DNA of 24,000 nt from Burkholderia cepacia (GTDB taxonomy: Bacteria > Pseudomonadota > Gammaproteobacteria > Burkholderiales > Burkholderiaceae), in contig NZ_CP013442.1 in the NCBI RefSeq assembly GCF_001718835.1, forward strand, positions 628,775 to 652,774. Reading direction: 5' to 3'. A program made the position numbers and the translations under genes. Below, piece after piece: positions 6,431 through 22,957 of this stretch (within the stretch, counting starts at the first letter, position 1; every line of letters starts with the position of its first letter). Below the pieces are notes generated by a model that saw nothing but the letters and a program-made list of their open reading frames with translations, did not search any database and was not told the origin of the DNA.

Positions 6431-9400
6431 TCAGCGGCGCAGCGACGCCTCGAGGCGCGCCAGTTCCGCGTCGACGTCGTCCGCCGGCTCGCCCGCCGCC
6501 TGCCCCGGACTCCCGGCCCCGGCCGCCGGCATCGGCTCGTCCGCCGCCGGTGCGCGTTCCGCCTTCAGCCGCTCGAACAGGAAGTCGGCGCCGAGCTCGA
6601 CGTTGCCGTAGTCGAACGCGAAGGTCGCCGGCAGCGACAGCCGCAGGTCGCGCTGCACCTTGCTGCGAAACTCGACGGCGGCCAGCGAATCCAGCCCGAG
6701 CTCCAGGAAGCCGCGGGTCGGCGCGACCTCCTCGGCGGTGCGGCCGAGCATCACCGCGATCTGCGCCTGCAGATAGGTCGCCAGCGCGTCGTGCAGGGCC
6801 GGCAGCGCCAGCGCGTCGAAGCGGTCGCGCTCGTCGTGGGTCGCGGCGGGCGCGGCGTCCGCCGCCTCCTTCGGGAACCAGTCGGCGAGCAGCTTGCGCA
6901 CGCCCTCGGACGGTTCGGTCTGCGCGTAGCGCTGCCAGTCGTCGTTGCCGATCACCACCGTGGCCGCGTCGGCGCGCCGCGCCGCTTCGACGTGCTTGAG
7001 GAGCTCGTCCGGCGACAGCGCCTGCAGGCCGCGCGCGGCCGCCTTGTCGCGATGCGCGCGATCGAGCGCGGCTGCCATCCCGACTTCGGCGAACGGCCCC
7101 CACTGGATGCTCGTGGCCGGCAGCCCGAGCGTGCGGCGGGCGCCGACGAGCGCGTCGAGGTACGCGTTAGCCGCCGCGTAGCTGCCCTGCCCGGCGGTGC
7201 CGAACAGCGCGCTGATCGACGAGAAGCAGACGAAGCAGTCGAGCGGCGCGTCGAGGCTCAGCGCATGCAGGTTGAGCGCGCCCGCGACCTTCGCGTGGAG
7301 CGGCACCGCGAACTCCGCCCAGGACTGGCCGCCCAGCACCCCGTCGCGCAGCGCGCCGGCCGCGTGGAAGATGCCCTTCAGCGGCAGCGGGCCGGACAGC
7401 ACGGTCTCGTGCCATGCGGCGCGCAGCGCCTCGAGATCGGCGACGTCGCAGCGGGCCAGGTCGACCGTGCAGCCCTGCTTGCGCAGCGCGTCGATCGCGG
7501 CGGCCGCGGCGGCGTCGGGGGCGCCGCGCGACATCAGCACGAGCCGCTTCACGCCGGCCTGCGCGAGCTGTTGCGCAAGGCGCAGGCCCAGCCCGCCCAG
7601 CCCGCCGGTGATCAGGTAGCTGCCGTTCGGCTCCAGCGGCGGCACGTCCCGGCGGGCCGGCTTCGCTCGCCCAAGGCGGGCGGCATGCACCGCGCCGTCG
7701 CGAAGCGCGAGCTGCAATTCGTCCGGCGCCGCGTGCAGCAGCGGCGCCAGCGCGGCGGCCGGGTCGGCCGTCGCGGGATCCAGGTCGATCGTGCGGCAGC
7801 CCCATTCCGGATGCTCGGACGCGACCACGCGCGAGAGCCCGGTCAGCGTCGCCTGTGCCGCGCGCTCGACGTTCAGCGTGCCGCCCAGCTCTTGCGCGCC
7901 CCCGGTGACGAAGCTCAAGCGAGCCGGCCTGTCGACCTGCGCCAGCGCGCCGACGAGCGCGAGTGCGCCACCGCACAGCTGCGCCTGGACGGCGAGCGGA
8001 TCGGCCGGCGTGTCGGCCTCGGCGCCGAAGTCCAGCGCGCGCAGGTCCACGACATGCAGGGTGCCCTTGCCCGCACGCGCCGCGACCGCACGCAGCGTGT
8101 CGCGCCATGCCGCCTCGCTCGCCGGATCGGCCAGCGGCACGCTCAGGTCGTCGCCGGTGTGCGATGCCGCATCGACCTGCAGGCAGCGCACCCCCGCGCT
8201 GCGCAGCCGCGCGGCCAGCGCCGCGCCGGTTCCAGCGCCGTCGCCGGCGACCAGTACGCAGTCGTCGGCCGGCAGCAGCGGCGTCGCCAGATCGTCGAGG
8301 CGCTGCCAGCGGGTCGCGAACAGGCGATCCGTTCCGTCGCCCTGCAACAGCGCATGCACCGCGCCCCGATGCAGGCGGCGCACCTCGAAGCCGCGCACAT
8401 GCGCGATCACGCGCCCCGAGTCCTCGAACACCCGGATATCCGCGGTCACGCCGTTCTCCTCGCCCTCGCCCTGCCGGACGATCCGCGCATGGACCCATAG
8501 CCGGTCGGTGGCGGGGCGGCCGTACAGGCGATAGCTGTCGATGCTGAACGGCACGTAGATGTAGTCGGTCTTGAGCAGCTCCTCGGTCGCGAACTGCCAG
8601 CAGCTGTTGAGCAGCTGGAAACCGGATTCGACGAGGCCCGCGTGGAACGGCCCGTCGATCGGTTCGAGCAGCGCCGGCAGACGCGTGCGGCACAGCGCCT
8701 CCGCGTCGCCCCGCCAGATCTCGTCGATCCAGCGGAACGAATTGCCCGTGTCCATGCCGGGAATCCACACTTTCGAATAGAAATCGGCGCCCGACAGGTA
8801 GTCCGCGCAGCGCGCCTTGACCGCGTCCAGCTCCGATGCGTCCGGGGCCGGCGGCAGCGCGCGCGGGCCTCGAATGCTGCGCGCCTCGACGTGGAGGGTC
8901 CACGCCGCGTCGTCGGCGGGATCGCGTTGCGGTGCGAGCGTGACCATCTCGATCGCATGCGACTGGCCGGCCGCCGGCCGCATCACGATCTGCACCGTGC
9001 GCCGTCCGGCCTCGGGCATCACGAACGGCCGGAGGAACAGGATTTCGTCGACGACGCAGCCGGCTTCGCCGTAGACCGCCTCGGCGGCGGCCAGGAACAT
9101 CGCGATGTGCGACGCGCCGGGCACGACCATCGCACCGAACAGGCGATGGTGGTCCACGTAGGCAGGCCAATCCGGACGGAATTCGGCCTCGAAGCGGACC
9201 TCGGTCGAACGCGGCAGCTTCAGGCGCCGGCCGAGCAGCGTGTGCAGGCCGCCTTCGTCGGACGCCGCGTGCCGGTGCGCGGACGCATCGGCGTGCTGGC
9301 TCGCGTCGACCCAGTAGCGCTTGCGCTGGAACGGATAGGTCGGCAACGCGACCTTGACCGGCTGGTCGACGCGATGCAGCGACGCCCAGTCCAGCGCCGC

Positions 9401-12400
9401 GCCGCGCACGTGCAGCCCCGCCGCGCTCTCCAGCATCTGCTCGACCTCCCCGCGCCCCGGGCGCAGGCTCGCCAGCGACACCACCTCGCTGTCCGGCCCC
9501 AGCGTCTGCCGCGCCAGCACCGTCAGCGTCGGACGCGCGCCGATCTCCAGCACCACGTCCACGCCCTGCGCCGCCAGCGCCTCGATCCCAAGACCGAACC
9601 GCACCGGCGCGCGCGTATGCTCGACCCAGTACCCCGCCGCCGCCACTTCCGCCCCCGCCACCGCGCCGCTCACGTTCGACACCAGCGGCAATTGCGGCGC
9701 CGACAGCCGCGTCGCCTTCAGCACCGCCTCGTACGCCGCCAGCATCGGCTCCACCAGCGGTGAGTGAAACGCATGCGAGCCCGGCAGCAGGTCCGTGCGT
9801 ACCCCTTCCTGCGCCAGCCGCGCACGCAGCGCCTCGATCTGCGCCGACGCCCCCGCCACCACCTGCTGCGACGGCCCGTTCAGCGCGGCGATCACCAGCC
9901 CGCCGCCCTGCTCCGCCAGCCGCTCGCGCAGCGTCGCCGCGTCCAGCATCACCGACAGCATCGCCCCGCCTTCGCAACGGCTCTGCATCAGCCGCCCGCG
10001 GCTCGCCACCAGCTTCAGCCCCGCCTCCAGCGTCAGCACCCCGGCCGCCTGCGCCGCCATGTACTCGCCCAGGCTGTGACCCATCACCACCTGCGGCGTC
10101 ACGCCCCAGCTCTCCCACGTCCGGCGCAGCGCATACCCCAGCGCAAACAGCGCCGGCTGCGTGTAGTCCGTGCGGTCCAGCAGCGCCGTCGACGCCCCGT
10201 ACAACACCTCCAGCAGCCCCACCTCCAGCTCGCCCTCCAGCAGGCTCGCGCATTCGGCCAGCGCCGCCCGGAACACCGGCTCGCGCTCGTACAGCTCGCG
10301 CCCCATTCCCGCGTATTGCGAGCCCTGGCCCGTGAACAGCATCGCCACCCGCGGCCGGCGGTTCCGGTACACCCCGCGCAGCAGCGCCGGCTGCTCGCCG
10401 CCCTCGCCGAACGCGCGCAGCCGCGACACCAGCTCCGCCCGCTCGCGCACCACCCACGCCGCGCGCTGCTCGAACGCGCTGCGCCCCGTGTTCGCCGTGT
10501 AGCAGATCGACGCCAGATCCGCCGAGCCCTGCTCCACGAACGATGCATAGCGCGTCGACAGCGCGCGCAACGCCTCCTCGCTGCGCGCCGACAGCGTCAG
10601 CACCTGCGCGCCGCGACCCGCGCCCGAAGCTTCCCGCACCACCTCCGGCGCCGATTCCAGGATCGCATGCGCATTCGTGCCACCGATCCCGATCGAACTC
10701 ACGCCGGCCACGCGCACGCCGCCCTCGGGGCGCCACGCGCGCAACTGCGTATTGACGAAGAACGGACTTGCGTCGAACGGAATGTCCGGATTGGTCTGCG
10801 TGCAGTGCAGGCTCGGCGGGATCTCGCCGTGAAATACCGTGAGGACCGCCTTGATCAGCCCGGCGACGCCCGCCGCCTGATCGAGGTGCCCGATGTTGGT
10901 CTTGACCGAGCCGATCGCGCAGAAGCCGGTGTCCGCGGTCGACGCGCGGAATGCCTGCGTCAGCGCGGCGATCTCGATCGGATCGCCGAGCGGCGTCGCC
11001 GTGCCGTGCGCCTCGACATAGCCGATCGCGCGCGGATCGATGCCGGCCGCCGCGTGCGCCTCCATGATCGCGGCTGCCTGGCCGTCGACGCTTGGCGCGG
11101 TGTACCCGACCTTGCCCGAGCCGTCGTTGTTGATCGCCGTCCCCTTCACCACCGCGTAGATGCGGTCCCCGGCCGCGAGCGCGTCGTCGAGCCGCTTCAG
11201 CACGACCACGCCGGCGCCGCTGCCGAACACGGTGCCCGCGCCCTGTCGGTCGAATGCGCGGCAGTGTCCGTCGGGCGACGCGACCATCCCTTCCTGGTAC
11301 AGGTAGCCGATGCGATGCGGAACGTGAATGCTGACCCCGCCGGCGAGTGCCGCGTCGCACTCGCCGCGCAACAGGCTTTGCGCAGCCAGGTGCACGGCGA
11401 CCAGCGAAGTCGAGCAGGCCGTCTGCACGTTGACGCTCGGGCCGTGCAGGTTCAGCCGGTAGCTGACGCGCGTCGGCAGGTGATCCTTCTCGTTGCTGAT
11501 GCGGATCTGGAAGGCCGCCGCGGGTGCCGAGTCCGACTCGAGCGGCGCGAGTACCGACTTGTGATAGCCGCTCGCGTCCGTTCCCGCAAATACGCCAATC
11601 CCGTCGCCCTCCTTCTGCGGATCGATGCCCGCATCTTCCAGTGCCTGCCACGCGCATTCGAGAAAGATCCGCTGCTGCGGATCGAGCAGCTCGGCTTCGC
11701 GCGGGCTCATGCCGAAGAAGGTCGCGTCGAACAAGTCGATGTCGTCGAGCACGAAGCCCGCGCGCACGTAGTTCGGATCGGCGAGCAGCGCAGGCGAGAC
11801 GCCCGCCGCGCGCAGTTCGGCCTCGCTGAATTCCGTGCGCGATTCCACGCCTTCGCGCAGGTTGCGCCAGAACGCGTCGACGCTCGACGCGCCCGGCACC
11901 CGCACCCCGATCCCGACCACGGCAACGCTCGCCGAGCGCGCCGGCATCTCGCCCCGGCTGCGTCCGCGCGGCCGGCCAGCGGCGACGGCCGACTGGCCGT
12001 GCGCGTCGAGATAGGCGGCCAGCCCGGCCACCGTCGGATTGCGGAAGAACTCGACGCGCGGCACGCGCATCCCGAACGCCTGCTCGATCTTCTGCTGCAT
12101 CTGCAGCAGCAGCATCGAATGACCGCCGAGATCGAAGAAATTGACATCGACGCCCACCTCGGGCGTGCGCAGCACGTCCCGCCAGATCGCCTGCACGCGT
12201 TCGAGCGTCGATCCGTGCGCCGCGGCCTGCGGCGCGGGCGACACCGCGCGGGCGAGCGCCGGCAGCGCGTTGCGGTCGACCTTGCCGTTGTCGGTCAGCG
12301 GCACCCGCTCGATGGACACGAACGCCGCTGGAATCATGTAGTCGGGCAGCGTGCGGCGCAGGCCGTCGCGCCACTGCGCTGAGCGGTCCGCGGCCGCGCC

Positions 12401-14452
12401 GTCGTCGTGCACCACGTAGGCGACGAGCCGCTGGTCGTCCTCGTCGAGGCGTTCGACGATGGCCACCGCCTGGCGCACGCCCGGCAGCGCAGTCAACGCG
12501 GCCTCGACGTCGCCCAGCTCGATCCGGAAGCCGCGCAGCTTCACCTGGTTGTCGAGCCGCGCGAGCCAGCGGATCGCACCGCTCGCGCTCGCCCGCACCA
12601 GGTCGCCGGTGCGATACAGCCGAACCGCGCGATCGCCGTCGAGCGTCACTTCGACGAACCTCTCCCGCGTCAGCGAATCGCGGCCGTGGTAGCCATCGGC
12701 GAGGCCCTCGCCGCCGATGTACAGCTCGCCCGCCACGCCGGGCGGCACCGGCGCACCATGCGCGTCGAGGATATGCAGGTGCACGTTGCGCAGCGGCGCG
12801 CCGATCGCCACGAAGCCGTGATCGCGCACGTCGTGCCAGGTCGCCCACACGGTCGCCTCCGTCGGCCCGTAGACGTTGCACAGGCGGCCCACCAGCGGAC
12901 GCAGCGCGCGCGCGAGCGGCTCGTCGAGCGCTTCGCCGCCGCACACGGCGGTCAGGTCGGGCTTGCCTCGCCATTGCGCGGCGACCAGCATCCGCCACGT
13001 GGCCGGCGTCGCTTGCAGCACGCGCGCCTGCGCCGCGTCAATCCGGCTCGCCAGCGCCAACGGGTCCGCCGTTTCGTCGCGGCTGGCAAGCCACACGCGC
13101 CCGCCGGCGACGAGCGGCACGAACAGCTCCGCGAACGCGATGTCGAACATCGGCGTGGTCACGGCCAGCCACGTCTCGCCCACCTGCAAGCCGCTGCGCT
13201 CGTGCATCGCGAGCAGCAGGTTGACGGCCGCACGATGCGCGACGCGCACGCCCTTGGGCTGGCCCGTCGAGCCCGACGTGTAGATCAGGTAGGCGATCGC
13301 GGAAGGATCGTCATCGCTGAAGTCAGCGCCCGCGCCGTCGCCCGGCACGCCTTCCAGCAGCGCGTCCAGCGCCACCTGCGGACGCGCCTGCGCACCGTCG
13401 GCTGCCGCTTCGGCGATCACGAGCCGGACGTCGGCGTTCTCCAGGATGAAATCGCGTCGCGCGGCAGGGTAGCCGGGGTCCAGCGGAACGTACGCGCAGC
13501 CGGCCGTCATCACGCCGAGCAGCGCGCTCAGCAAATCGACGCGACGCTCCACGCACACCGCCACGCGCTCGCCCGGCTGGATGCCGCGTGCGCGAATCGC
13601 GCGTGCGACCCGCGCCGCGCGCTGCAGCAGTTCGCGATAGCTTAGCCGCTGCGTCGCCGTTTCGACAGCAATCGCGTCCGGCGTCCGCCCGGCGGCCGCA
13701 CGGATCAGCGCGCTGACCGTCAGATCGGGTATCTCCGCCACCGGGCCGCGGAGCGTGTCGCGCCATGCGGCGAGCGCATGCGCCGGCCACAGCGGCAGCT
13801 CGCCGACCGGCGCGGCCGCCGCGTCCGGCAGCGCCGTGGCCGCGCCAAGCCAGCTCGTCAGCATGCCCGAGATCGTCGCGGCTTCGTAACGATCCTCGTC
13901 GTACTCGCACTCGAGCAACAGCGCGTCCGCGCGGCGGATCAGCATGAAATTGAGCTCGCTGTCGACGAACAGCGCGTCGGCGTCGTCCAGCGCCGCCTCG
14001 GACAGCGCCGCCTCGGCGAGATCGGCGGGCAAGTTGACGAACGACACCGTCACCGGAGCAGGCGCGCGCTCGGGATCGTGCGGCGTGCGCTGGTCGAGCG
14101 CGCCACGGGTCGCGCGCAGCAGCACGTCGGCCGGCGCGTCCGGCGCGACGTCGAGCGTCAGGCGCGTGCGCGCCGGTTCGCCCTGTGCGTCAGCGTGCGT
14201 GATCAGGTCGAGCGGCACGCTGCGCTGGTCAGCGTAGCGGGCGAGCGTCATGCCGAGCGCCGCGAGCCAGAGCGTCGCCTCCGCGTAGCCGCCGTGCCGC
14301 GCGCGCGCGCCGGCCGCCTCCGCCGTCGCGGCGGGCACGGGCATGTCGTTTCGCATCCTGCGGTAGCGAGGCGTGACCGGCGCGGGATAGTCCCGCGGCA
14401 GGTCGAGCGGTACGGGCGTGTGCGTCGCGGGCTTCGTCGTGTGTGCGTTCAT
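6431..14452 (-). CDS. Hybrid NRPS-PKS: truncated condensation domain (C-terminal lobe only)-A-T-KS-AT-DH-KR-ACP
   Basis: Complete ORF: ATG 14450-14452, TGA 6431-6433. Residues 1 to ~225 match only the C-terminal lobe of a C domain; they start at LDLPRDYPAP (LPxDxxRP-type motif) and no HHxxxDG is present. A domain: LSYRELL, AGCAYVPLD, YTSGSTGQPKG, FDIAF, NVYGPTE, GELYIGGEGLADGY, YRTGD, GKVDR (approx 12248-13720). PCP: FFDLGGHS (approx 12008-12211). KS: QTACSTS / EAHGTAT / NIGHLD (approx 10655-11929). AT: GHSLGE / HAFHS (approx 9425-10348). DH: HRLFGAMVVPG (approx 8363-9250). KR: SYLITGGLGGLG, LRD, SSISALFGTAGQGSYAAAN (approx 7088-8275). ACP: LGLDSL (approx 6578-6805). The C-terminus carries the helix DVDAELARLEASLRR. 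Confidence 0.95.
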   Translation of the reverse strand: MNAHTTKPATHTPVPLDLPRDYPAPVTPRYRRMRNDMPVPAATAEAAGARARHGGYAEATLWLAALGMTLARYADQRSVPLDLITHADAQGEPARTRLTLDVAPDAPADVLLRATRGALDQRTPHDPERAPAPVTVSFVNLPADLAEAALSEAALDDADALFVDSELNFMLIRRADALLLECEYDEDRYEAATISGMLTSWLGAATALPDAAAAPVGELPLWPAHALAAWRDTLRGPVAEIPDLTVSALIRAAAGRTPDAIAVETATQRLSYRELLQRAARVARAIRARGIQPGERVAVCVERRVDLLSALLGVMTAGCAYVPLDPGYPAARRDFILENADVRLVIAEAAADGAQARPQVALDALLEGVPGDGAGADFSDDDPSAIAYLIYTSGSTGQPKGVRVAHRAAVNLLLAMHERSGLQVGETWLAVTTPMFDIAFAELFVPLVAGGRVWLASRDETADPLALASRIDAAQARVLQATPATWRMLVAAQWRGKPDLTAVCGGEALDEPLARALRPLVGRLCNVYGPTEATVWATWHDVRDHGFVAIGAPLRNVHLHILDAHGAPVPPGVAGELYIGGEGLADGYHGRDSLTRERFVEVTLDGDRAVRLYRTGDLVRASASGAIRWLARLDNQVKLRGFRIELGDVEAALTALPGVRQAVAIVERLDEDDQRLVAYVVHDDGAAADRSAQWRDGLRRTLPDYMIPAAFVSIERVPLTDNGKVDRNALPALARAVSPAPQAAAHGSTLERVQAIWRDVLRTPEVGVDVNFFDLGGHSMLLLQMQQKIEQAFGMRVPRVEFFRNPTVAGLAAYLDAHGQSAVAAGRPRGRSRGEMPARSASVAVVGIGVRVPGASSVDAFWRNLREGVESRTEFSEAELRAAGVSPALLADPNYVRAGFVLDDIDLFDATFFGMSPREAELLDPQQRIFLECAWQALEDAGIDPQKEGDGIGVFAGTDASGYHKSVLAPLESDSAPAAAFQIRISNEKDHLPTRVSYRLNLHGPSVNVQTACSTSLVAVHLAAQSLLRGECDAALAGGVSIHVPHRIGYLYQEGMVASPDGHCRAFDRQGAGTVFGSGAGVVVLKRLDDALAAGDRIYAVVKGTAINNDGSGKVGYTAPSVDGQAAAIMEAHAAAGIDPRAIGYVEAHGTATPLGDPIEIAALTQAFRASTADTGFCAIGSVKTNIGHLDQAAGVAGLIKAVLTVFHGEIPPSLHCTQTNPDIPFDASPFFVNTQLRAWRPEGGVRVAGVSSIGIGGTNAHAILESAPEVVREASGAGRGAQVLTLSARSEEALRALSTRYASFVEQGSADLASICYTANTGRSAFEQRAAWVVRERAELVSRLRAFGEGGEQPALLRGVYRNRRPRVAMLFTGQGSQYAGMGRELYEREPVFRAALAECASLLEGELEVGLLEVLYGASTALLDRTDYTQPALFALGYALRRTWESWGVTPQVVMGHSLGEYMAAQAAGVLTLEAGLKLVASRGRLMQSRCEGGAMLSVMLDAATLRERLAEQGGGLVIAALNGPSQQVVAGASAQIEALRARLAQEGVRTDLLPGSHAFHSPLVEPMLAAYEAVLKATRLSAPQLPLVSNVSGAVAGAEVAAAGYWVEHTRAPVRFGLGIEALAAQGVDVVLEIGARPTLTVLARQTLGPDSEVVSLASLRPGRGEVEQMLESAAGLHVRGAALDWASLHRVDQPVKVALPTYPFQRKRYWVDASQHADASAHRHAASDEGGLHTLLGRRLKLPRSTEVRFEAEFRPDWPAYVDHHRLFGAMVVPGASHIAMFLAAAEAVYGEAGCVVDEILFLRPFVMPEAGRRTVQIVMRPAAGQSHAIEMVTLAPQRDPADDAAWTLHVEARSIRGPRALPPAPDASELDAVKARCADYLSGADFYSKVWIPGMDTGNSFRWIDEIWRGDAEALCRTRLPALLEPIDGPFHAGLVESGFQLLNSCWQFATEELLKTDYIYVPFSIDSYRLYGRPATDRLWVHARIVRQGEGEENGVTADIRVFEDSGRVIAHVRGFEVRRLHRGAVHALLQGDGTDRLFATRWQRLDDLATPLLPADDCVLVAGDGAGTGAALAARLRSAGVRCLQVDAASHTGDDLSVPLADPASEAAWRDTLRAVAARAGKGTLHVVDLRALDFGAEADTPADPLAVQAQLCGGALALVGALAQVDRPARLSFVTGGAQELGGTLNVERAAQATLTGLSRVVASEHPEWGCRTIDLDPATADPAAALAPLLHAAPDELQLALRDGAVHAARLGRAKPARRDVPPLEPNGSYLITGGLGGLGLRLAQQLAQAGVKRLVLMSRGAPDAAAAAAIDALRKQGCTVDLARCDVADLEALRAAWHETVLSGPLPLKGIFHAAGALRDGVLGGQSWAEFAVPLHAKVAGALNLHALSLDAPLDCFVCFSSISALFGTAGQGSYAAANAYLDALVGARRTLGLPATSIQWGPFAEVGMAAALDRAHRDKAAARGLQALSPDELLKHVEAARRADAATVVIGNDDWQRYAQTEPSEGVRKLLADWFPKEAADAAPAATHDERDRFDALALPALHDALATYLQAQIAVMLGRTAEEVAPTRGFLELGLDSLAAVEFRSKVQRDLRLSLPATFAFDYGNVELGADFLFERLKAERAPAADEPMPAAGAGSPGQAAGEPADDVDAELARLEASLRR
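9306..10681. repeat. Copy 2 of the 1376-bp direct repeat (KS-AT linker + AT + post-AT linker cassette)
   Basis: Same alignment as copy 1. The flanking KS and DH coding sequences of the two genes are clearly divergent at the nucleotide level immediately outside the repeat. Confidence 0.95.
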
Positions 14453-14471: not shown

Positions 14472-16235
14472 TCAAGCCTTCAGCGTTGCCAGGTAATTCC
14501 CGATCACCAGCGCGTCGAGGCGCGCTTCGCGGAACGTCTCGACCGCTTCGTCCGCCGTGCGAACGATCGGCTGGCCGCGCACGTTGAAGGAGGTGTTCAG
14601 CAGGATCGGAATGCCCGCCGCATGCTCGAACGCTTCGAGCAACTGATAAAAGCGCGGATTGCGATCGGCGAACACCGTCTGCACGCGCGCGGAGCCGTCG
14701 CAATGCGTGACGGCCGGCAACGCGTTCCGGTGCGCGGCCTTCACACCGGTCACGTACAGCATGTGTGCGAAGGTCTCCACTTCGCCCGCCTTGATGTCGA
14801 AGAATTCCGGCGCACGGTGGGCCAGCACGGCCGGCGCGAACGGCCGGAAGTCCTCGCGCTTCTTCACCAGCGCGTTGACGCGCGCACGCATCGACGGCGA
14901 GCGCGGATCGGCGAGGATGCTGCGATTGCCGAGCGCACGCGGACCGAATTCCATCGCGCCCTGGAACCAGCCGACGATCTGCTCGCGCGCGAGCAGGTCC
15001 GCCGTCACGCGCGCCAGCTCCGCCGCGTCGTCGAAGCGGCGCACGTCGAGCCACGGCTTGTCGAGCGCCGCGCGGATCGCGCCGTCGTCCTCGTGCGTGC
15101 CCCAGAACGGCATGCTCATCGGCTGCATCACCGCATCCGGGTCATGCTCGCTCTGTACGTAGAGCGCTGCGCCGAGCGCCGTACCGTCGTCGCCCGAAGC
15201 GGGCTGCACGAAGGTGCGCTTGAACAGCCGGCTGCGCAGCACGACGCCGTTCGCGGTGCAGTTGAGCGCGACGCCGCCCGCCATGCAAAGGTGGCGCGCG
15301 CCGGTGCTCGCCTTGAAGGTCTGCAGCGTATGCAGCGTCGTGTTCTGCAGCACGGCCTGCAGCGCGGCGGCGAGATCCATGTGGGCCTGGGTGATCGGCT
15401 CGTCCGGCAGGCGCGGCTTGCCGAACAGTTCTTCGATGACCCGCGACGACGCGCGATAGGTCGCCATCTCGAGCGGCGTCTCGTTCAGCTGCAGGACCGG
15501 AATCGTGTAGAAGCCGTCGTCCTGCAGGCGCACCAGCTCGCTCAGCTTCGCGAAGTACGGGCGCGGGTCGCCATACGGTGCCAGCCCCATCACCTTGTAT
15601 TCGCCCGAGTTGAAGCGGAACCCGAGGTGCAGCGTGAACAGCCCGTACAGCACGCCGAGCGAATGCCGGTGCGATACGCTCGCGACCCGGGTGAGGCGGC
15701 CATTGCGGCCCGTCCAGATCGACGCGCTCTCGGTCTCGCCCATCCCGTCGGAGACGAACACCAGCGCGTCGTCCATGCCGCTCGGGTAGTAGGCACTGGC
15801 CGCGTGAGCGAGATGGTGCGGCACCTGCACGAACTTCTCGTCCCACGGCCCGTCGCCCCAGCGTTCGCGCAGCACGCTCAGTTGCGCGTCGCGCGACTGG
15901 ACCTGCTCGAACTCCACGCGCGCATCGCCCGTCTGCGCCAGCGATGCGGCGACGGCATCGTAGGCGAATCCGTGCGCGATGCGATCGACCTGGTCGAGCC
16001 GCAGGCCCGCCCGGGCCAGCACTGCGTCGATCGCACCGGCCGGAAAGCGCTCGATGCCCTTTTGGCCCGTGAAGCGCTCTTCCGCCGCCGCGCCGACGAT
16101 GCCGCCCGGGCCGACGAGCGCCGCGGCGGCGTCCAGCCCTTGCGTAATGCGCAGTTCACGGCGCTGGATATCCGGGTAATGCTGCTCGCGAAACGAAATG
16201 GCGCGGTCCAGCCCGCTAATGCCAAGGACATGCAT
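14472..16235 (-). CDS. Carbamoyltransferase, NodU/CmcH family
   Basis: 587-aa ORF: ATG 16233-16235 with GAGGGG 5 nt upstream, TGA 14472-14474. Family-typical motifs: PHHLAHAASAYY, GEYKVMGLAPYG, MAGGVALNCTAN, MEFGPRALGNRSIL, KKREDFRPFAP, DGSARVQTV, NTSFNVRGQPIV. The stop lies only 19 nt before the NRPS-PKS start. Confidence 0.9.
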   Translation of the reverse strand: MHVLGISGLDRAISFREQHYPDIQRRELRITQGLDAAAALVGPGGIVGAAAEERFTGQKGIERFPAGAIDAVLARAGLRLDQVDRIAHGFAYDAVAASLAQTGDARVEFEQVQSRDAQLSVLRERWGDGPWDEKFVQVPHHLAHAASAYYPSGMDDALVFVSDGMGETESASIWTGRNGRLTRVASVSHRHSLGVLYGLFTLHLGFRFNSGEYKVMGLAPYGDPRPYFAKLSELVRLQDDGFYTIPVLQLNETPLEMATYRASSRVIEELFGKPRLPDEPITQAHMDLAAALQAVLQNTTLHTLQTFKASTGARHLCMAGGVALNCTANGVVLRSRLFKRTFVQPASGDDGTALGAALYVQSEHDPDAVMQPMSMPFWGTHEDDGAIRAALDKPWLDVRRFDDAAELARVTADLLAREQIVGWFQGAMEFGPRALGNRSILADPRSPSMRARVNALVKKREDFRPFAPAVLAHRAPEFFDIKAGEVETFAHMLYVTGVKAAHRNALPAVTHCDGSARVQTVFADRNPRFYQLLEAFEHAAGIPILLNTSFNVRGQPIVRTADEAVETFREARLDALVIGNYLATLKA

Positions 16236-16288
16236 GACGGCCCCTCGTAAAGAAATGCGAATGGTGTCGGGTCGACGCGGACGCTCGA

Positions 16289-17284
16289 TCAGCGCGCGCC
16301 CAGTCTCGTGATCAGATGCTCATCCCGCTCGAGCGTCGGGTTAGGCGTCGTCAGCAGCCGGTCGCCGACGAACACCGAGCCGGCGCCGGCCAGGAAGCAC
16401 AGCGCCTGCAGTTCGTCGCTCATGTGCTCCCGGCCGGCCGACAGGCGGACCACCGATTCCGGCATCAGGATCCGGGCAACCGCGATAGTGCGCACGAACT
16501 CCAGCCCGTCGACGCCGTCGGCTGCGGCCAGCGCGGTGCCGGGAACCCGCATCAGCGAGTTGATCGGCACCGACTCGGGATGGACCGGCAGGTTCGCGAG
16601 GGTCTGCAGCATGCCGATACGGTCGTCGCGGGTCTCGCCCATGCCGACGATGCCGCCGCAGCACACCTTGAGGCCCGCGCCGCGCACGTGGTCGAGCGTC
16701 TCCAGGCGATCGTCGAGCGTGCGCGTGCTCGCCACCGTCGGGTAATACGCCGGCCCGGTGTCGATGTTGTGGTTGTAGAAATCCAGGCCGGCATCCGCCA
16801 GCCGCGCGGCCTGCGGCCCGGTCAGCATGCCGAGCGTCACGCAGGTCTCGAGGCCGAGCGCCTTCACGCCCTTGACCATGTCGCACACACGCTCGAGATC
16901 CCGCTCGCGCGGGCTGCGCCACGCCGCGCCCATGCAGAACCGCTGCACGCCGGCCGCCTTCGCGGACGCCGCGGCAGCCAGCACCGCATCGAGATCCATC
17001 AGCTTGCTGGCCGGCAGCATCGTGTCGGCATGCACTGACTGGCTGCAATAGCCGCAGTCCTCCGGACATCCGCCGGTCTTGATCGACAGCAGCTGCGAAA
17101 TCTGCAGCGGACGTCCCGCATGGAAGCGGCGCTGGATCGTCTGCGCGTCGTACAGAAGATCCGTCAGCGGCGCGGCGAACAGCGCCGCGATCTCTTCTTG
17201 CGTCCAGTCGTGCCGGACGGCCGCGTCGGCGCTCCGATTGCCTGCGGACGCGCGAACGCCGTCCGACGACGTGTCATGACTCAT
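16289..17284 (-). CDS. bioB: Biotin synthase-type radical SAM enzyme (BioB paralogue)
   Basis: 331-aa ORF that is colinear with E. coli BioB as recalled from memory. It has the radical-SAM triad CPEDCGYC and the [2Fe-2S] ligand contexts FCMGAAW, ETCVTLG, KVCCGG and RLSAGR. Further matching segments are [36 protein letters not shown] and LLTTPNP. Confidence 0.9.
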
Positions 17285-17324
17285 GTGAACGATTCCGTTG
17301 ATTGAGATGAAAGTCGGACGGCAG

Positions 17325-18308
17325 TCAGTTCCGCCCGGTGCTAAGCACCACCTTTCCGGCCACCTTGCGCTGGCGCAGCAGCTCGATTGCGTCCGCAGCC
17401 TCCGACAGTTCCATGACGCGCGACACGTGCGGTGCGAGCTTGCCGGCCTCGAACCAGCCGAACAGCGTGGCGAACGCCTTGCGCACCCAGTCCGGCCGGC
17501 TCGCCCGGTAGTGCCCCCAGTAGAAGCCCATCACGTCGCAGTTCTTGACCAGCAGCAGGTTCGCCGGCACGCGCGGGATCTCACCGCTCGCGAAACCGAT
17601 GACGACGATGCGCGCCTCGGGCGCGACCACCCGCAGGCTGGCGTCGAACGCGGCCCCGCCGACCGGGTCGTACACGACGTTCACCCCCTTCCCGCCGGTC
17701 AGCGCCTTCACCTGCTCGCGAAAATCGTCCCGGCCGGCCTCGATCACGTGGTGCGCGCCGCTGCGGCGGGCAGCCGCCCGCTTGTCCTCCGAGCTCGCCA
17801 CCGCGATCACCGTGGCACCGAGCGCCCGGCCCACTTCGATAGCGGTCAGGCCGGTGCCGCTGCCCGCGCCGTGCACCAGCAGCGTCTCGCCCTCCTGCAG
17901 CTTCGCGCGCCACGTGAGCGCGCCGTACGACGTGCCGTAGGCGATGGCGAAACCTGCGCCGGTCGTGAAATCCATCGACGCTGGCATCCTGAACAGGTTC
18001 GCGGCAGGCAGCACGACCTCGTCCGCGAAGCCGCCCCACGCAAGGATGCCCATCACCCGGTCGCCGACCGACACCGACGTCACGCCGGGCGCCGTCTCGA
18101 CGACCGTGCCCGCAATTTCGAAACCCGGCACGAACGGCAGCGCCGGCTTGGTCTGGTAGCGCCCCTCGACGATCAACGTGTCCGCGAAATTGATGCCGCA
18201 CGCATGCACGTCGATCCGCGCCTCGCCCGCCGCGAGCGGCGCCGACGTCACGTCCCGCAGCGCCAGCGCCCCGGTGCCGTCATAGGCTTCACACACGATC
18301 GCTCGCAT
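17325..18308 (-). CDS. NADPH:quinone oxidoreductase-like medium-chain reductase (zinc-free MDR)
   Basis: The true start is taken as ATG 18306-18308 ([11 protein letters not shown]...), 2 nt after the upstream gene's TGA (TGATCATG). The track ORF 17325..19562 is an upstream run-on in another frame of the DAO gene. Motifs: [43 protein letters not shown]. No zinc-ligand Cys/His pattern is present. Confidence 0.85.
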
Positions 18309-18310
18309 GA

Positions 18311-19477
18311 TCAAGCCCCGGCCGGCACGTCGTCGGCGCGCGCGCCCGGACGGCCATCCTGCTCGATGCCTGCCGGCCCGGCCGACAGCATGTGTTCGAC
18401 CCGTTCCGCAGCCTCGAGCGCGCATCCCCACGACAACGTCACACCGGCCCCACCATGCGCGTAGTTGTGCAGGATGTGCGTGCCCGATACCGCTTCGAGC
18501 CGCACGTTGCCATGCCTGAACGGCCGCAGCCCGGCCCGCACCGGCTCGCCCGGATCGATCTCGGCGTTCGCGAGCGCGGGCATGAACTCGATGCCCCGCC
18601 GGTACATCCGCCGGATCGGCTCGTGATTGTCGAACCCGATGTCCGTGCTCCATTCGTCGGCTTCCGCGATCGCGCCGAGCACGATGCGGTCCTCGCCGCG
18701 CGGCACGATGAACACGATCTCGTCGACGCCCGTCACGTGGTCGTGTGACACGCAGTGCGCCTGATCGAGGCGCGGGATCCTGCTGCCGTCGTTCACGAGG
18801 CGGATCACGGCGCCGCGCAGCGGATACATCGGCTCGCCGCTCAGCTCGGCCGCCCCGAGGCCCGCGCAGTTGACGATCGCATCGACGCCAAAGTCCGCCT
18901 TCAGGCGCGCCTCGTTCGCCTGCAGGTCGCCTTCGATCCGCTGCTGGATGACCCGGATGTTCTTTGCGATCACCTGACCCAGCAGCCAGGCCATGTAGAC
19001 GTCCGTATCGACCATCGGCGCGAGATGGCAATACGCGTCGACGAGTCCGAAGTCCGGATTCACGCCGTTCTCGCGGATCAGTGCCGGATCGCGCCGGAAA
19101 CCCGGCACGTGCTGGCGGATCTCGTTCATCTTCTCGAGATGGAGCGCGTGCTCCTCGATGCGGTTGCGGAAGTAGAAATTGACCGGACGGATGTAGACGC
19201 CGGTCGCCGGATCGGCCGCGAGCGTCTCGAACTTGCGGAACGAGACCATGCACCAGTGCTTCGAGCGCTCCAGCGAAACCTCGTCGTGGTGATAGCCACA
19301 GACGGCGGGCGGCCATTCCCACAGGGCGCCGGCCACCACCGACGTGATGTTTGGCGCGAATTTCTCGCCGACGACCGTCACGCTGATGCCGCGCTTGTGC
19401 AGGCACAGCGCAGTCGTCAGGCCGGCCACGCCGGCACCTATGACGAGCGCGCGCCCCTTCTCTCCAGGTTCCCTCAT
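18311..19477 (-). CDS. FAD-dependent oxidoreductase, D-amino-acid oxidase (DAO/glycine oxidase) family
   Basis: Has the Rossmann motif ALVIGAGVAGLTTA near the N-terminus and the C-terminal DAO signature HNYAHGGAGVTLSWGCA. I prefer ATG 19475-19477, which has GGAG 5 nt upstream, over the track's GTG at 19504. TGA at 18311-18313. Confidence 0.85.
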   Translation of the reverse strand: MREPGEKGRALVIGAGVAGLTTALCLHKRGISVTVVGEKFAPNITSVVAGALWEWPPAVCGYHHDEVSLERSKHWCMVSFRKFETLAADPATGVYIRPVNFYFRNRIEEHALHLEKMNEIRQHVPGFRRDPALIRENGVNPDFGLVDAYCHLAPMVDTDVYMAWLLGQVIAKNIRVIQQRIEGDLQANEARLKADFGVDAIVNCAGLGAAELSGEPMYPLRGAVIRLVNDGSRIPRLDQAHCVSHDHVTGVDEIVFIVPRGEDRIVLGAIAEADEWSTDIGFDNHEPIRRMYRRGIEFMPALANAEIDPGEPVRAGLRPFRHGNVRLEAVSGTHILHNYAHGGAGVTLSWGCALEAAERVEHMLSAGPAGIEQDGRPGARADDVPAGA

Positions 19478-19578
19478 GTCTTCTCCATGAATCGGTCGCG
19501 CCACGCGACGTCGAGGCGGCCGACAGGAAGCAGCAATGACGGGCGCGCCGCGCCCGCCGCACGGACTACTGCGGATGA

Positions 19579-20754
19579 TCAGCCCCCGGCCGGTGCGTCC
19601 GAGCGCGGAACGCGCTGCCGGATCACCGTCGCGAGACGCTCGATCTCGTCGTCGGGATGGCCTGCGGTGATCAGGACGCGCAGGCGGGCCGTGCCGCGCG
19701 GCACCGTGGGCGGACGGATCGCGGTCACGAAGAAGCCTTCATCGGCAAGCATGCGCGATGCGTTCAGCGTGGCCATCTCGTCGCCGATGATGATCGGCAC
19801 GATCGGAGTCTGCGGCTCGGGGATGCCCAGCGACGCCGCGAACGCCTTCGCTTTCGCGAGCGGCCGCTCGACAAGCGCCGGATCGGTGGCGATGATCTCG
19901 AGCGACGCGATGGTCGCCGCGACCGTCGCCGGGGGTTGGCCCGTCGTCAGTCCATAGGTGCGCGCGCGGTTGCGGATCAAGTCGATCACCGGGGCCGAGG
20001 CTGCGAGGTAGCCGCCGTAGCTGCCCACCGCCTTGCCTAGCGTGCCCATCTTCAGGGGTACGCGCGCGTCGCGCCCGGTCGCGAAGGTCGCGCCGCGCCC
20101 TTGCCCCACGACACCGATGCCGTGCGCGTCGTCGGACATCACCCAGGTGTCAAAACGATCGCCAAGCGCGACCAACTCCTCGAGCGGTGCGATGTCGCCG
20201 TCCTGTGAGAACACGCCGTCGGTCAACAGGATCGCCTTGCCATGCGCGCGCCGGTGCTCGTCCAGCAGCGCCTCGACGTGGGCGAGATCGTTATGCCGGA
20301 ACCCGACGATCCGGCCGCGCGACAACTGCGCGCCCGCCCACAGGCAGCCGTGCGCGAGTTCGTCGATGAGGATCAGATCCTCCTTGCCGACGAGGGCCGG
20401 GACAATGCCCGAGTTCGCGAGGTAACCCGAGCCGAACACGCAGGCGGTCTCCGTGCCCATCAGGCCGGCGAGCCGCGCTTCGAGATCGGCGAACAGCGGG
20501 TGATTGCCGGTCACGAGCCGCGACGCGCCGGCACCGGCCCCATAGCGGCGAATCGCGGCGATCGCCGCTTGCTTCACCACCGGATGCTGGGTGAGATTGA
20601 GGTAGTCGTTGCACGAGAACGAAAGCAGCCGGCGTCCGTCCCGGCGGATCCAGATTCCTTCGCTTCGATCTGTTTCCGTGAGTGCGCGACGCAAGTTCGA
20701 CGCGCTCAGCTCCGCGAGCTTTTGCTCTGCAAATGAATCAAGCGAATGTGTCAC
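19579..20754 (-). CDS. bioF: PLP-dependent alpha-oxoamine synthase (8-amino-7-oxononanoate synthase / BioF-like)
   Basis: 391-aa ORF: GTG start 20752-20754 with purine-rich GAAGAGAGGGA 4 nt upstream. It is colinear with E. coli BioF as recalled from memory: SNDYLNL, GSGYLAN, FRHND, GVFSQDGD, DDAHG, PLP-lysine context TLGKAVG, and IRPPTVPRGTARLR. It is the first gene of the operon. Confidence 0.85.
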   Translation of the reverse strand: MTHSLDSFAEQKLAELSASNLRRALTETDRSEGIWIRRDGRRLLSFSCNDYLNLTQHPVVKQAAIAAIRRYGAGAGASRLVTGNHPLFADLEARLAGLMGTETACVFGSGYLANSGIVPALVGKEDLILIDELAHGCLWAGAQLSRGRIVGFRHNDLAHVEALLDEHRRAHGKAILLTDGVFSQDGDIAPLEELVALGDRFDTWVMSDDAHGIGVVGQGRGATFATGRDARVPLKMGTLGKAVGSYGGYLAASAPVIDLIRNRARTYGLTTGQPPATVAATIASLEIIATDPALVERPLAKAKAFAASLGIPEPQTPIVPIIIGDEMATLNASRMLADEGFFVTAIRPPTVPRGTARLRVLITAGHPDDEIERLATVIRQRVPRSDAPAGG

Positions 20755-20940
20755 TCGGTCCCTCTCTTCCCGATGTTCCGTTCAATGAACATCCGTACCG
20801 CGCTGCCCGCGCGTCCGGCACAAGGTAACGCCATCCCCGCGGGGCGTCGCGGCCATGGGTGCATGTCCATCATCTGAATGCCGGCCCCGATCCGTCGGCG
20901 CGCACTCGGAAAACACCGGGTATTTCCATGAAAAAATACG

Positions 20941-20968
20941 AATATGCATTGATGCACGGCCCCTTCAA
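20941..20968 (-). promoter_or_regulatory. Candidate sigma70-type promoter for the biosynthetic operon
   Basis: Minus strand: TTGAAG (20968-20963), 16-nt spacer, CATATT (20946-20941), about 190 nt upstream of the bioF-like GTG. This is a pattern match only. Confidence 0.2.
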
Positions 20969-21120
20969 TCTCTTGCTCATTTGTGACAGGCACATCGAAT
21001 TCGCAACGGAGTCGCTTAGTGCCTCATACAGACGACACCATTGCGGCTTCGGCGACTTTCGCGCAAGAAAGGTTCGAATTAGGTCGTTTCTCGACCAAAT
21101 CCCAATAAAAGCACTGTTGC

Positions 21121-21161
21121 AATAAAAAACAAGAAACCGACGTGACTCTCAGGCAGTCACG
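21121..21161 (-). terminator. Candidate intrinsic terminator / hairpin upstream of the cluster
   Basis: The minus strand reads CGTGACT-gcctgag-AGTCACG (7-bp stem, 7-nt loop, 21141-21161) followed by tcggTTTcTTgTTTTTTaTT. The stem is short and the U-tract starts 4 nt after it, so confidence is low. No convincing minus-strand gene is seen upstream of it. Confidence 0.3.
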
Positions 21162-21563
21162 AGCCCCGTGATATCAGGCTTATCGATCAAATCAGCGCCA
21201 CATCACTCGGCAATCTTGTTTTCTTAAATATCTCGGTATTGATTTTGAATCTATCTTGCCTGTTAACCGGCATTAGCAAGCCAGGAACTGACTTGATCGG
21301 CCACTGAACCCGGCCCGTTTTGTTTTCCGCACTGAAAAGCGTAAGGGCGTGCCAGAACGACGCACATCAAAGCGCTGGCCGACAGACTCGGGGGAGTTTC
21401 TTCAACGGGACATTGCGATAATGATGCGATCCTCTTTAAACAATCTAAATCTCCGTTAGCTGAAAGCTCATCGAGTCGACAAGGTAGTACACGGCGTTTT
21501 CAAAGTCAACTTTATTGGCATTTTTATGTCGCGCGCGCAAGCGCAAGCATTAAACTCAATATT

Positions 21564-21593
21564 TTGTCGATTTGATTTGAATTTGTTTACAAT
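21564..21593 (+). promoter_or_regulatory. Candidate sigma70-type promoter facing the DUF1697 gene
   Basis: Plus strand: TTGTCG (21564-21569), 18-nt spacer, TACAAT (21588-21593), about 200 nt upstream of ATG 21792. This is a pattern match only. Confidence 0.25.
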
Positions 21594-21791
21594 CTTGCAT
21601 GGCGACATGCCGATTCGTTAGGCCCTGCGATAAATAACAGGAGATTGATCTGAAATTCGATTCAAATTGGGTGATTGACGCCGTTACACGACTCATCACC
21701 GGCGGTATCGGCCGGCGGCATTCACGGCGGAGGACCTTGTTGGTCTTCCTCTATAGAATGGATCCTCCTTCCACCAGAATCCCTTATATCC

Positions 21792-22322
21792 ATGCGTTAC
21801 ATCTGCCTGCTTAGAGGAATCAACGTCAGCGGCCATCGCAAGGTGACAATGAAAGAATTGCTGGAAATGTGCACGGATTTGAAATTCCGGAACGCCGTCA
21901 GCTACTTGCAGAGCGGCAATCTGGTTCTCGAATCGACGCTGAAGGCAGCCGAACTCGAATCAACGCTCGAGCGCGAAATCGCCGACCGTTTCGGCTATGC
22001 CGATGTCTCCGTGATGGCGCTCACCAAGGCCGGCCTCTCGGCCGTGATCGACGCACTACCGAAGCACTGGCGCGAGTACGACCCGTCCAAGCTGCACTTC
22101 TCGTTCCTGAAGATGGCGGGCGCCCAAGCCGGCAGCGCCGCGTCGAAAGACTATCTTCCCGACGAGTACGCGGTCGGCGAGCGCGTGGTCTATGTCCATT
22201 GCCCGAACGGATATGGACGCACCAAGCTGAACAACAGCTTCGTCGAACGGCTGACTGGCACGCAGGCCACGACCCGCAACTGGAACACCACGCACCACCT
22301 GCTTGAACTCGTCGCGGCCTAG
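21792..22322 (+). CDS. DUF1697 family protein
   Basis: The N-terminus MRYICLLRGINVSGHRKVTMKEL...YLQSGNLV is the characteristic DUF1697 start, so ATG 21792 is preferred to the track's upstream TTG at 21675. TAG at 22320-22322. No strong SD is seen. Confidence 0.75.
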   Translation: MRYICLLRGINVSGHRKVTMKELLEMCTDLKFRNAVSYLQSGNLVLESTLKAAELESTLEREIADRFGYADVSVMALTKAGLSAVIDALPKHWREYDPSKLHFSFLKMAGAQAGSAASKDYLPDEYAVGERVVYVHCPNGYGRTKLNNSFVERLTGTQATTRNWNTTHHLLELVAA

Positions 22323-22421
22323 TCGGCGCGGCATCTGAACGACCCAGCGCCAGCTCGCCCAGGGCCAGCGCACGACTATCTGCCCGAGGCGCGCGCGTTC
22401 GCGATCCAGCTTCAGAACTAT

Positions 22422-22688: not shown

Positions 22689-22957
22689 GCGATGGACGAA
22701 CCGGATCCGCGCAGCTTGCTTCCTCCCGCGCGTCACCAGATCGCGGACGCTGCCGCAGCGTGCGCGCAGTGCCACAAACCGATGGCCGCCGACGACCTGT
22801 CCTCCACTACGGGGCGCTCGGACGCGCTGCGGCAATGCCGCCGTTGCCGGCGACTGTCCCAGACATCACAAATCTTTTAACTTTCCGTGAGGACTTCGAC
22901 ACCGGCCGCTGACTACGATGGGCGCATGTTTTCAGGACCTGCTGCCAGGAGCCCATC

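Follow-up and report, generated by a model that had tools for sequence, protein, structure and literature searches.

A mobile Burkholderia operon joining biotin-pathway homologues to a peptide-polyketide assembly line as a candidate source of a biotin antimetabolite

The window analysed here is a stretch of 24,000 nucleotides from Burkholderia cepacia (contig NZ_CP013442.1, positions 628,775 to 652,774; ~70% GC), in which genes for a BioF-like alpha-oxoamine synthase (AONS), a flavoprotein resembling D-amino acid oxidase (DAO-like), a zinc-free medium-chain dehydrogenase/reductase (MDR), a copy of the biotin synthase BioB and a carbamoyltransferase (CT) lie directly upstream of a non-ribosomal peptide synthetase-polyketide synthase (NRPS-PKS) assembly line, with every relevant gene on the minus strand. 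The initial annotation had described five co-directional genes separated by 2-101 nt, the last of them ending 19 nt before the NRPS-PKS; we confirm these coordinates, and the family assignments likewise hold in Pfam and NCBIfam profile searches. Comparison with related loci places the five genes at the start of a mobile ~33-kb operon, and we lean, with slightly better than even confidence, towards a biotin-pathway antimetabolite with a skeleton similar to 7-keto-8-aminopelargonate (KAPA) or dethiobiotin as the product of this operon. The features are:

19579..20754, minus strand: BioF-like alpha-oxoamine synthase, 391 aa from a GTG start, gene 1 of the operon; Pfam Aminotran_1_2
18311..19477, minus strand: DAO-like flavoprotein, 388 aa from an ATG start, or 397 aa if an upstream GTG (19504) is used; Pfam DAO
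17325..18308, minus strand: zinc-free MDR NAD(P)H reductase (quinone-oxidoreductase/PIG3-like), 327 aa; ADH_N, ADH_zinc_N and ADH_zinc_N_2
16289..17284, minus strand: copy of the radical-SAM biotin synthase BioB, 331 aa; TIGR00433
14472..16235, minus strand: NodU/CmcH-family CT, 587 aa; Carbam_trans_N and Carbam_trans_C
6431..14452, minus strand: NRPS-PKS 1 (PKS1), 2673 aa, without an enoylreductase (ER) domain; domains as mapped with Pfam on the orthologue of B. glumae (91% identity)
12281..13696 (approximate limits), minus strand: adenylation (A) domain of PKS1, specificity code read by hand and by script
8360..9244 (approximate limits), minus strand: atypical dehydratase (DH) domain of PKS1 module 1, from motif comparison
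1..6399, minus strand: PKS 2 (PKS2), 2132 aa, with its stop codon at window positions 1-3; KS-AT-DH-ER-KR-ACP
20755..21674, no strand assigned: non-coding, AT-rich leader/promoter region of 0.9 kb, ~49% GC, 5' of the operon

From the BioF-like gene to PKS2 the intergenic gaps measure 101 (74 with the GTG start of the DAO-like gene), 2, 40, 53, 19 and 31 nt, and a scan of the coding strand, itself not above chance, yielded no terminator-like sites between the genes. The remaining genes of the window encode a DUF1697 protein (21675-22322, plus strand), MsrB and a DsbD-like protein; as had been annotated, no homologue of BioA or BioD is found among the window genes.

In loci that are 88-91% identical at the nucleotide level, the full operon continues with a third PKS ending in a thioesterase (PKS3 and TE), an avidin, an MFS transporter, a VOC/epimerase-like protein and a methylmalonyl-CoA mutase; what is said below of PKS3, TE, avidin and mutase, all located outside the window, is inferred from these loci, an exact look-up of PKS2 having yielded no record that covers them in the genome of the window itself. 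Thus, PKS2 of B. glumae is followed by PKS3, an avidin/streptavidin-family protein, an MFS transporter, a VOC protein and the mutase, and the order PKS3-avidin-MFS recurs in Burkholderia sp. FERM BP-3421 (L011) and in L014/L015. An avidin gene was found inside or next to the cluster in L006, L011, L014 and L007 (in each case beyond the window); the cluster avidin has a signal-peptide-like N-terminus and carries the same or conservative residues at the streptavidin positions Asn23, Ser27, Tyr43, Ser45, Trp79, Trp92, Trp108, Trp120 and Asp128. The mutase and the VOC protein (a weak match of 47.6 bits, below the cut-off, to methylmalonyl-CoA epimerase) would fit a dedicated methylmalonyl-CoA supply.

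The cassette and NRPS-PKS reside on a plasmid in FERM BP-3421 (L001) and on the chromosome in B. stagnalis (L002), where the msrB-side locus is the same as in the window. The cluster also occurs on 38 Burkholderia plasmids, mostly of B. glumae (37 records at 90-95% nucleotide identity), and in Trinickia sp. NRRL B-1857 (L016; 93% nucleotide identity); IS110, IS21 and IS66 elements lie on either side of the unit on plasmid bglu_2p of B. glumae BGR1. Since its location varies between an insertion sequence (IS)-flanked plasmid site (B. glumae), another plasmid (FERM BP-3421) and the chromosome (B. stagnalis and the window), the cluster is accessory and mobile, and distinct from the housekeeping bio locus. 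A housekeeping biotin locus was likewise considered for the cluster itself and excluded on the grounds of its accessory, in B. glumae IS-flanked, location on plasmids, the lack of bioA and bioD, and the identity of only ~40% between the BioF-like protein and Burkholderiaceae BioFs; the scans made brought no additional, canonical bio operon to light in these genomes.

More distant variants separate what is constant in the cluster from what is exchangeable. In L009/L010 (CT 76% identical) the order is CT-PKS1-PKS2 with unrelated genes upstream. In L007/L008 (CT 75%) a divergent avidin gene and a fusion of an acyl-CoA synthetase with a BirA ligase precede CT-PKS1; this 756-aa fusion (L007 6635-9380, metagenome 3300027835; L008 alike) adjoins the avidin gene, is divergent from CT-NRPS-PKS, and its BirA-ligase domain scores 121 bits against a cut-off of 83. 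In L097/L099, from groundwater, PKS2-PKS3-MFS occupies one strand and BioB the other, and a separate operon reads MFS-BioF-like-DAO-(benzoate-CoA-ligase-family enzyme)-MDR. On a contig from JGI, PKS3-MFS adjoins BioB. BioB is hence found beside the PKS in three different gene orders, and is linked to the CT-PKS core independently in each. The link to biotin that had been drawn from the window alone is thereby strengthened on three counts: (i) the avidin gene following the last PKS in orthologous loci, (ii) the avidin and BirA-ligase fusion of the variant, and (iii) the three arrangements of BioB beside the PKS.

Two decayed copies have lost BioB. In Trinickia sp. NRRL B-1857 an in-frame deletion has left a BioB remnant of 46 codons (L016 9801-9948), i.e. 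the N-terminal 19 aa and the C-terminal TTPNP end, and the BioF-like, DAO, MDR, CT and PKS1 genes are intact despite the loss. In L098 (12150-13506; soil metagenome Ga0207695_10000255) a deletion of ~23 kb joins the first ~125 BioB codons to the last ~600 nt of PKS3, leaving BioF-like-DAO-MDR-avidin-MFS; an interpretation of L098 as an 'ancestral' BioF-DAO-MDR-avidin unit is excluded by this junction. Taken together, the variants identify CT and the three PKSs as the core of the cluster.

CT scores 178 bits with Carbam_trans_N and 230 bits with Carbam_trans_C, and 151.7 bits with the NodU equivalog, for which the cut-off is 1000. Wherever the junction is visible, that is, in the Burkholderia and Trinickia loci, L007/L008 and L009/L010, CT immediately precedes the NRPS-PKS (for L097 and the P0006 contig, the junction falls beyond the sequence stretch examined), and it is the sole tailoring gene that is kept fused to the NRPS-PKS in each of these variants, including those (L007, L009) with no BioF, DAO, MDR or BioB gene upstream. 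A genome-collection scan with CT was dominated by generic homologues of 36-48% identity and contained a single close locus, that of Trinickia.

BioB scores 384.8 bits against the TIGR00433 equivalog (cut-off 225) and aligns with E. coli BioB (1R30) at 392 bits, all ligands of the clusters and all contacts to dethiobiotin being kept. As stated in the initial annotation and confirmed by this alignment, it retains the CxxxCxxC triad of the [4Fe-4S] cluster (CPEDCGYC), the four [2Fe-2S] ligand contexts, and the YNHNIDT and TTPNP segments; in the 1R30 numbering, the [2Fe-2S] ligands are Cys97, Cys128, Cys188 and Arg260, and the dethiobiotin contacts Asn151, Asn153 and Asp155. No active-site change is visible. 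Sequence identity is 99% with a B. ubonensis protein, 89-91% with the cluster copies of B. stagnalis and FERM BP-3421, and 75-80% with other BioBs, including those at 75-78% encoded in ordinary contexts (a Mycetohabitans bioB-bioF unit and a plain chromosomal locus). BioB may be either the sulfur-inserting catalyst or an extra, tolerant target copy that confers resistance. The closest named non-cluster BioB (78%; Mycetohabitans endofungorum, L096 5134-8240) belongs to a two-gene bioB-bioF unit with a divergent GntR-family regulator upstream and with neither bioA nor bioD adjacent. A neighbour-joining tree of BioBs, in which the cluster copies were mixed with those of Mycetohabitans and Vallotia and which carried no support values, was not used as evidence.

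On the Pfam map of the B. glumae orthologue, PKS1 comprises an N-terminal stretch of ~230 aa followed by A-T-KS-AT-DH-KR-ACP; we read the N-terminal stretch, in which no match to Pfam Condensation was found, as a probable remnant of a C domain. PKS2 (KS-AT-DH-ER-KR-ACP) and PKS3 (KS-AT-DH-ER-KR-ACP-TE, the C-terminal TE carrying GHSLG) were assigned in the same way, so that module 1 is the only one without an ER. The acyltransferases AT1 and AT2 share the motif GHSLGE...HAFH and look malonyl-specific, and AT3, with GQSMGE...YASH (YASH being present in B. glumae as well as in the distant L097), looks methylmalonyl-specific. A direct repeat of 1.4 kb (window 3701-5101 and 9306-10706), comprising the KS-AT linker and AT of PKS2 and PKS1, is 98.7% identical and is flanked by sequence of only ~35% identity. 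AT1 and AT2 were homogenised, either through gene conversion or in a recent exchange.

The A domain exhibits the code D-I-A-Q-V-G-V-V-W-K in all Burkholderia copies, with I or L at position 299 in distant variants. The one substitution common to all variants of the cluster is Leu239 to Ala (L239A), which enlarges the pocket, and we interpret the domain as a member of the glycine clade that was probably retuned to a slightly larger residue, with alanine as the simplest candidate. The DH domain of module 1 (DH1) keeps HxxxGxxxxP, but has GMDTGNSF in place of GxxYGPxF and HAGLVESGFQ, i.e. a Glu, at the position of the catalytic Asp; these atypical motifs are conserved in the Burkholderia copies and in the distant L009, and DH2 is canonical. 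DH-like domains with an altered second motif act as Michael-type cyclases in other PKSs. The first-module DH of L007/L008 resembles the Burkholderia DH2 type and not DH1.

On this basis a route can be outlined, in which everything past gene content, domain order and motifs is inference and the chain arithmetic follows textbook PKS logic. The A domain would load a small amino acid, with alanine favoured and glycine possible; an alanine starter would contribute its methyl group as C9, the amino-bearing carbon as C8 and the carbonyl as C7. Module 1 would add C6-C5 from malonyl and halt at a C6=C7 enoyl thioester, and modules 2 and 3 would add C4-C1 with full reduction, from malonyl and then methylmalonyl, module 3 setting a 2-methyl group. 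The TE would release 8-amino-2-methylnon-6-enoic acid or a derivative thereof, such that an alanine-started chain (3 + 6 carbons plus an alpha-methyl group) would share its skeleton with alpha-methyl-KAPA and with alpha-methyl-dethiobiotin. CT would carbamoylate N8, and a urea nitrogen could then add to C7, the beta-carbon of the enoyl thioester of module 1 on its ACP, thereby closing the imidazolidinone without BioA or BioD. Finally, BioB would insert sulfur to yield alpha-methylbiotin, or else serve as a resistant or extra target copy, and the secreted avidin would bind the product and/or scavenge biotin. Alternative starters (2,3-diaminopropionate, 2,3-diaminobutyrate, or Glu-type side-chain loading) and a reading in which the amine end is oxidised to give a pimelate-like diacid were considered and set aside, as they leave the chain one carbon off or offer no methyl group for BioB.

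Carbamoylation and cyclisation onto an enoyl or keto group, followed by reduction by the MDR, had been proposed already in the initial annotation. The former two steps fit the assembly line, because module 1 alone lacks an ER, CT is always fused to the NRPS-PKS, and DH1 is atypical precisely where cyclisation is proposed; the MDR is not required for closing the ring on this model. Even so, the complete BioA/BioD-independent route, from alanine, two malonyl units and one methylmalonyl unit through an aza-Michael ring closure by CT and the atypical DH to BioB-made alpha-methylbiotin, handled by the avidin, is put forward here tentatively, as one possibility that falls well short of being probable. 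Several observations weigh against it or against the antimetabolite reading as a whole. No described product of the cluster was found in the literature. The A domain groups with domains of glycine type, its nearest solved relatives being LgrA (second A domain; 520 bits) and AB3403 (aligned code DILQLGVVWK), both of which activate glycine, and a glycine starter would lead to a 9-nor skeleton that BioB would be unable to close. The nearest solved or characterised relatives of CT, that is, NovN, GdmN and TobZ (260-370 bits), are O-carbamoyltransferases. With Glu in place of the catalytic Asp and without the YGP tyrosine, DH1 could be inactive, leaving a 7-hydroxyl open to O-carbamoylation. Deletions have removed BioB from Trinickia sp. 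NRRL B-1857 and from L098; the BioF-like/oxidase/MDR trio has no role in the model, yet accompanies the PKS in the rearranged cluster L097, where it is conserved at 63-74% identity; and PKS3, TE, avidin and mutase had to be taken from loci that are 88-91% identical.

The trio itself deserves closer description. Against the bioF equivalog TIGR00858 the BioF-like protein scores 421.2 bits and marginally misses the cut-off of 426.45; its identity with B. multivorans BioF (5VNX, 240 bits) is ~43%, as judged by eye, and that with the BioF of Mycetohabitans is 39%. The pyridoxal-phosphate lysine reported in the initial annotation is kept in the alignments (TLGKA), as are ELAHG (His133), DDAHG (Asp204/His207) and an N-terminal LRR at the position of Arg21, the residue of E. 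coli BioF that pairs with the pimeloyl carboxylate. The DAO-like protein matches human and pig D-amino acid oxidase (DAAO) over its full length (E ~1e-30, residues 9-360) and keeps the N-terminal FAD motif GxGxxG (GAGVAG) and the equivalent of the carboxylate-binding Arg283 (GLRPFR), but lacks the tyrosines that bind the substrate carboxylate in DAAO (Tyr224 to Asp, Tyr228 to Phe), and its substrate may not be a plain D-amino acid. Its homologues at 47-65% identity are common stand-alone genes of soil bacteria in unrelated contexts, and an attempt to derive a function from these neighbourhoods was dropped for this reason. The MDR scores 247.7 bits against TIGR02824, below the cut-off of 296.8, and has PGFEIAG where the zinc-ligand GHE motif would be; with the zinc ligands absent, as had been noted before, it would seem to belong to the wider zinc-free MDR group only. 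It is 33-35% identical to the ER domains of PKS2 and PKS3.

The orthologues in L097 are 72% (BioF-like), 74% (DAO-like), 63% (MDR) and 75% (BioB) identical to the window genes; the BioF-like, DAO-like and MDR genes represent a conserved sub-cassette. Because the L097 cassette brings its own CoA ligase, the substrate of the trio is probably a free carboxylic acid, the thioester of which the trio would act upon. Possible roles include (i) extension of the carboxyl end of the product to an amino ketone, followed by oxidation and reduction in a manner analogous to alpha-hydroxyketone signal synthesis, (ii) a bypass from pimelate through KAPA to 7,8-diaminopelargonate (DAPA) that would shield the biotin supply of the producer from the inhibitor it makes, and (iii) the making of a second metabolite.

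The second of these roles belongs to a division of labour that we regard as possible though doubtful, in which the PKSs and CT make the inhibitor and BioB, the BioF-like enzyme, the oxidase and the MDR keep the producer's own biotin synthesis running; BioB might then be an extra or insensitive target, and the BioF-like enzyme together with a reductive-amination/oxidation pair might bypass BioA. Such self-protection is consistent with a BioB that is ordinary in sequence (78% identical to plain chromosomal or bioB-bioF copies, with all dethiobiotin contacts kept), with the Arg21 equivalent (LRR) of the BioF-like protein, presumably a contact of the pimeloyl carboxylate, with the acyl-CoA ligase of the L097 trio, as expected of a supply line from pimelate to KAPA, and with the occurrence of the CT-PKS core in L007 and L009 without the cassette directly upstream. 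In addition, alpha-methyl-dethiobiotin and alpha-methyl-KAPA have been reported to inhibit BioB and BioA, respectively, and an extra BioB of S. lydicus (MdbC) has been suggested to be a resistance protein (PMC13336041). Contrary to this assignment, the BioF-like protein is only ~40-43% identical to true BioFs and falls below the equivalog cut-off, no BioD copy is present, an MDR/DAAO pair in place of BioA is without precedent, and resistance genes are seldom lost while the PKS stays intact, whereas Trinickia has lost BioB only. We consider it improbable that DH1 is inactive and that CT instead O-carbamoylates a C7 hydroxyl to give 8-amino-7-carbamoyloxy-2-methylnonanoate or a cyclic oxazolidinone, a product that would mimic the DAPA-carbamate intermediate of BioD. 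The closest solved carbamoyltransferases are all hydroxyl-acting, and the Glu-for-Asp exchange and the missing YGP tyrosine of DH1 speak for this variant as well; but the His motif of DH1 is intact, its atypical motifs are conserved and not decayed, Glu works as the partner residue in FabZ-type dehydratases, and N-carbamoylating members of the CT family (VioL/CmnL type) exist.

The initial annotation had assumed that the AONS off-loads the ACP-bound chain with alanine, and that the resulting amino ketone passes through N-carbamoylation and cyclisation before the MDR reduces it and BioB inserts sulfur. Intact catalytic residues of the AONS, the conservation of the trio with the PKS, and the lack of a separate acyl-CoA ligase in the Burkholderia operon, which makes direct use of an ACP thioester conceivable, favour such a release. 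We nevertheless hold it to be quite unlikely: the C-terminal TE of PKS3 with its GHSLG motif points to hydrolytic release, the CoA ligase accompanying the L097 trio implies a free-acid substrate, and the product would, unlike biotin, carry its methyl branch beside the ketone (C6 equivalent) and an amine rather than a carboxylate at the far end. Moreover, no AONS is needed for a KAPA-like skeleton, because the 8-amino group and C7-C9 lie in the NRPS starter. Finally, the PKS product might be unrelated to biotin, with avidin and bio genes forming a travelling module for biotin competition through sequestration and supply. Bacterial avidins are indeed widespread without such clusters (PMC8033661), and a distant avidin homologue, P0245, is encoded in an unrelated context. 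With three independent biotin functions (avidin, BioB and the BirA-ligase fusion) linked to the CT-PKS core in different orders and taxa, and with chain length, amino position and methyl branch all matching the biotin skeleton, a coincidence of this kind appears very improbable.

The preferred reading, i.e. an antimetabolite with a KAPA/dethiobiotin-like skeleton, finds its closest counterpart in Streptomyces, where avidin-linked antimetabolite clusters have been described (PMC13336041; bioRxiv 10.1101/2025.10.09.681295; PMC13111796) that make alpha-methyl-KAPA, alpha-methyl-dethiobiotin and acidomycin via a pimelate-type route (PMC13336041). In the streptavidin gene-cluster nexus or megacluster (mkp/mdb, acd, nda, sta; PMC13336041, bioRxiv 10.1101/2025.10.09.681295), avidin genes are linked to biotin-antimetabolite clusters, as here; likewise shared are an enzyme resembling BioF (MkpD), additional bio genes with a copy of BioB among them, an NRPS-PKS (nda), which builds a C9 amino diacid there, and the product class of alpha-methyl-KAPA/dethiobiotin, which is the class predicted here. 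The differences are considerable. The nexus belongs to another phylum and is a cluster of clusters, in contrast to the single operon described here; the fatty-acid-synthase-like KS/ACP, BioI-type P450 and bioA/bioD copies of mkp/mdb have no counterpart in the window or the B. glumae locus, so that the likeness to the mkp/mdb pathway is in the predicted product only. The amino end is proposed to come from the NRPS starter and the ring carbonyl from CT, and a DAAO-like/MDR partner is undescribed in the nexus. Full-text literature searches yielded no Burkholderia counterpart, no PKS/carbamoyltransferase route to a dethiobiotin-like scaffold and no product, and the genome paper of FERM BP-3421 states its non-assigned clusters to be orphan (PMC10589681). 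We thus rate the cluster as probably of the avidin-linked biotin-antimetabolite kind known from Streptomyces, with new predicted chemistry.

Relative to the canonical BioF-BioA-BioD-BioB pathway, BioB is matched at equivalog level and BioF nearly so, and the predicted skeleton has the canonical chain of nine carbons, functionalised at C7 and bearing nitrogen at C8. Here, however, BioA and BioD are absent, a modular PKS chain takes the place of pimeloyl-ACP, C7-C9 are proposed to enter intact from the amino acid without a decarboxylative Claisen step, and the ureido carbon is proposed to derive from carbamoyl phosphate and not from CO2/ATP. AONS enzymes are encoded with PKSs, as here, in the pathways to fumonisin (Fum8), prodiginine (PigH/RedN) and saxitoxin (SxtA), the last of which also pairs its AONS with a NodU-type carbamoyltransferase; in these pathways the PKS is not known to carry a releasing TE, or the AONS forms a fusion with an ACP of its own, whereas PKS3 carries a TE and the L097 AONS cassette its own CoA ligase. 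GdmN, NovN and TobZ share the two-domain fold family of CT at the 260-370 bits given above, but O-carbamoylate late intermediates, whereas CT, encoded 19 nt from the loading NRPS module, is proposed to N-carbamoylate an early one.

Antibiotic research is actively pursuing biotin synthesis as a target, and Streptomyces is the source of the natural inhibitors known so far and of the avidins that accompany them. The cluster, which travels on plasmids and IS-flanked islands, would add Burkholderia, plant-associated as well as opportunistic, to the bacteria with avidin-linked antagonism of biotin. If correct, the proposed route would represent the first polyketide-style build of the dethiobiotin/biotin scaffold and a new way of forming a cyclic urea. 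At ~33 kb, with hosts open to genetic work (FERM BP-3421, for example) and a product that should bind avidin, the system is compact and testable; it might be used for making biotin analogues and for asking how producers survive them, and it draws attention to the conserved AONS/DAAO-like/MDR trio.

Upstream of the operon, the leader (20755..21674) contains no Rfam family, and no riboswitch was found 5' of the operon; neither BirA (bioO) nor BioR operators were found there, the best bioO-like candidate having 5 mismatches. Beyond the leader, window positions 21666-22864 are missing from the B. stagnalis locus, which is syntenic in other respects, and positions 22864-23998 (msrB and the DsbD-like gene) match it at 89%. 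The copy on the FERM BP-3421 plasmid (CP117779.1; L011 1-2721, L001 3172-5535 and L011 14363-16838) also counts among the decayed ones: PKS2 is split into open reading frames of 1944 aa and 206 aa by a frameshift or sequencing error. The VOC and mutase genes are absent there, and the cluster has a gene for an AprA-like methyltransferase-ACP upstream and luxI/luxR downstream.

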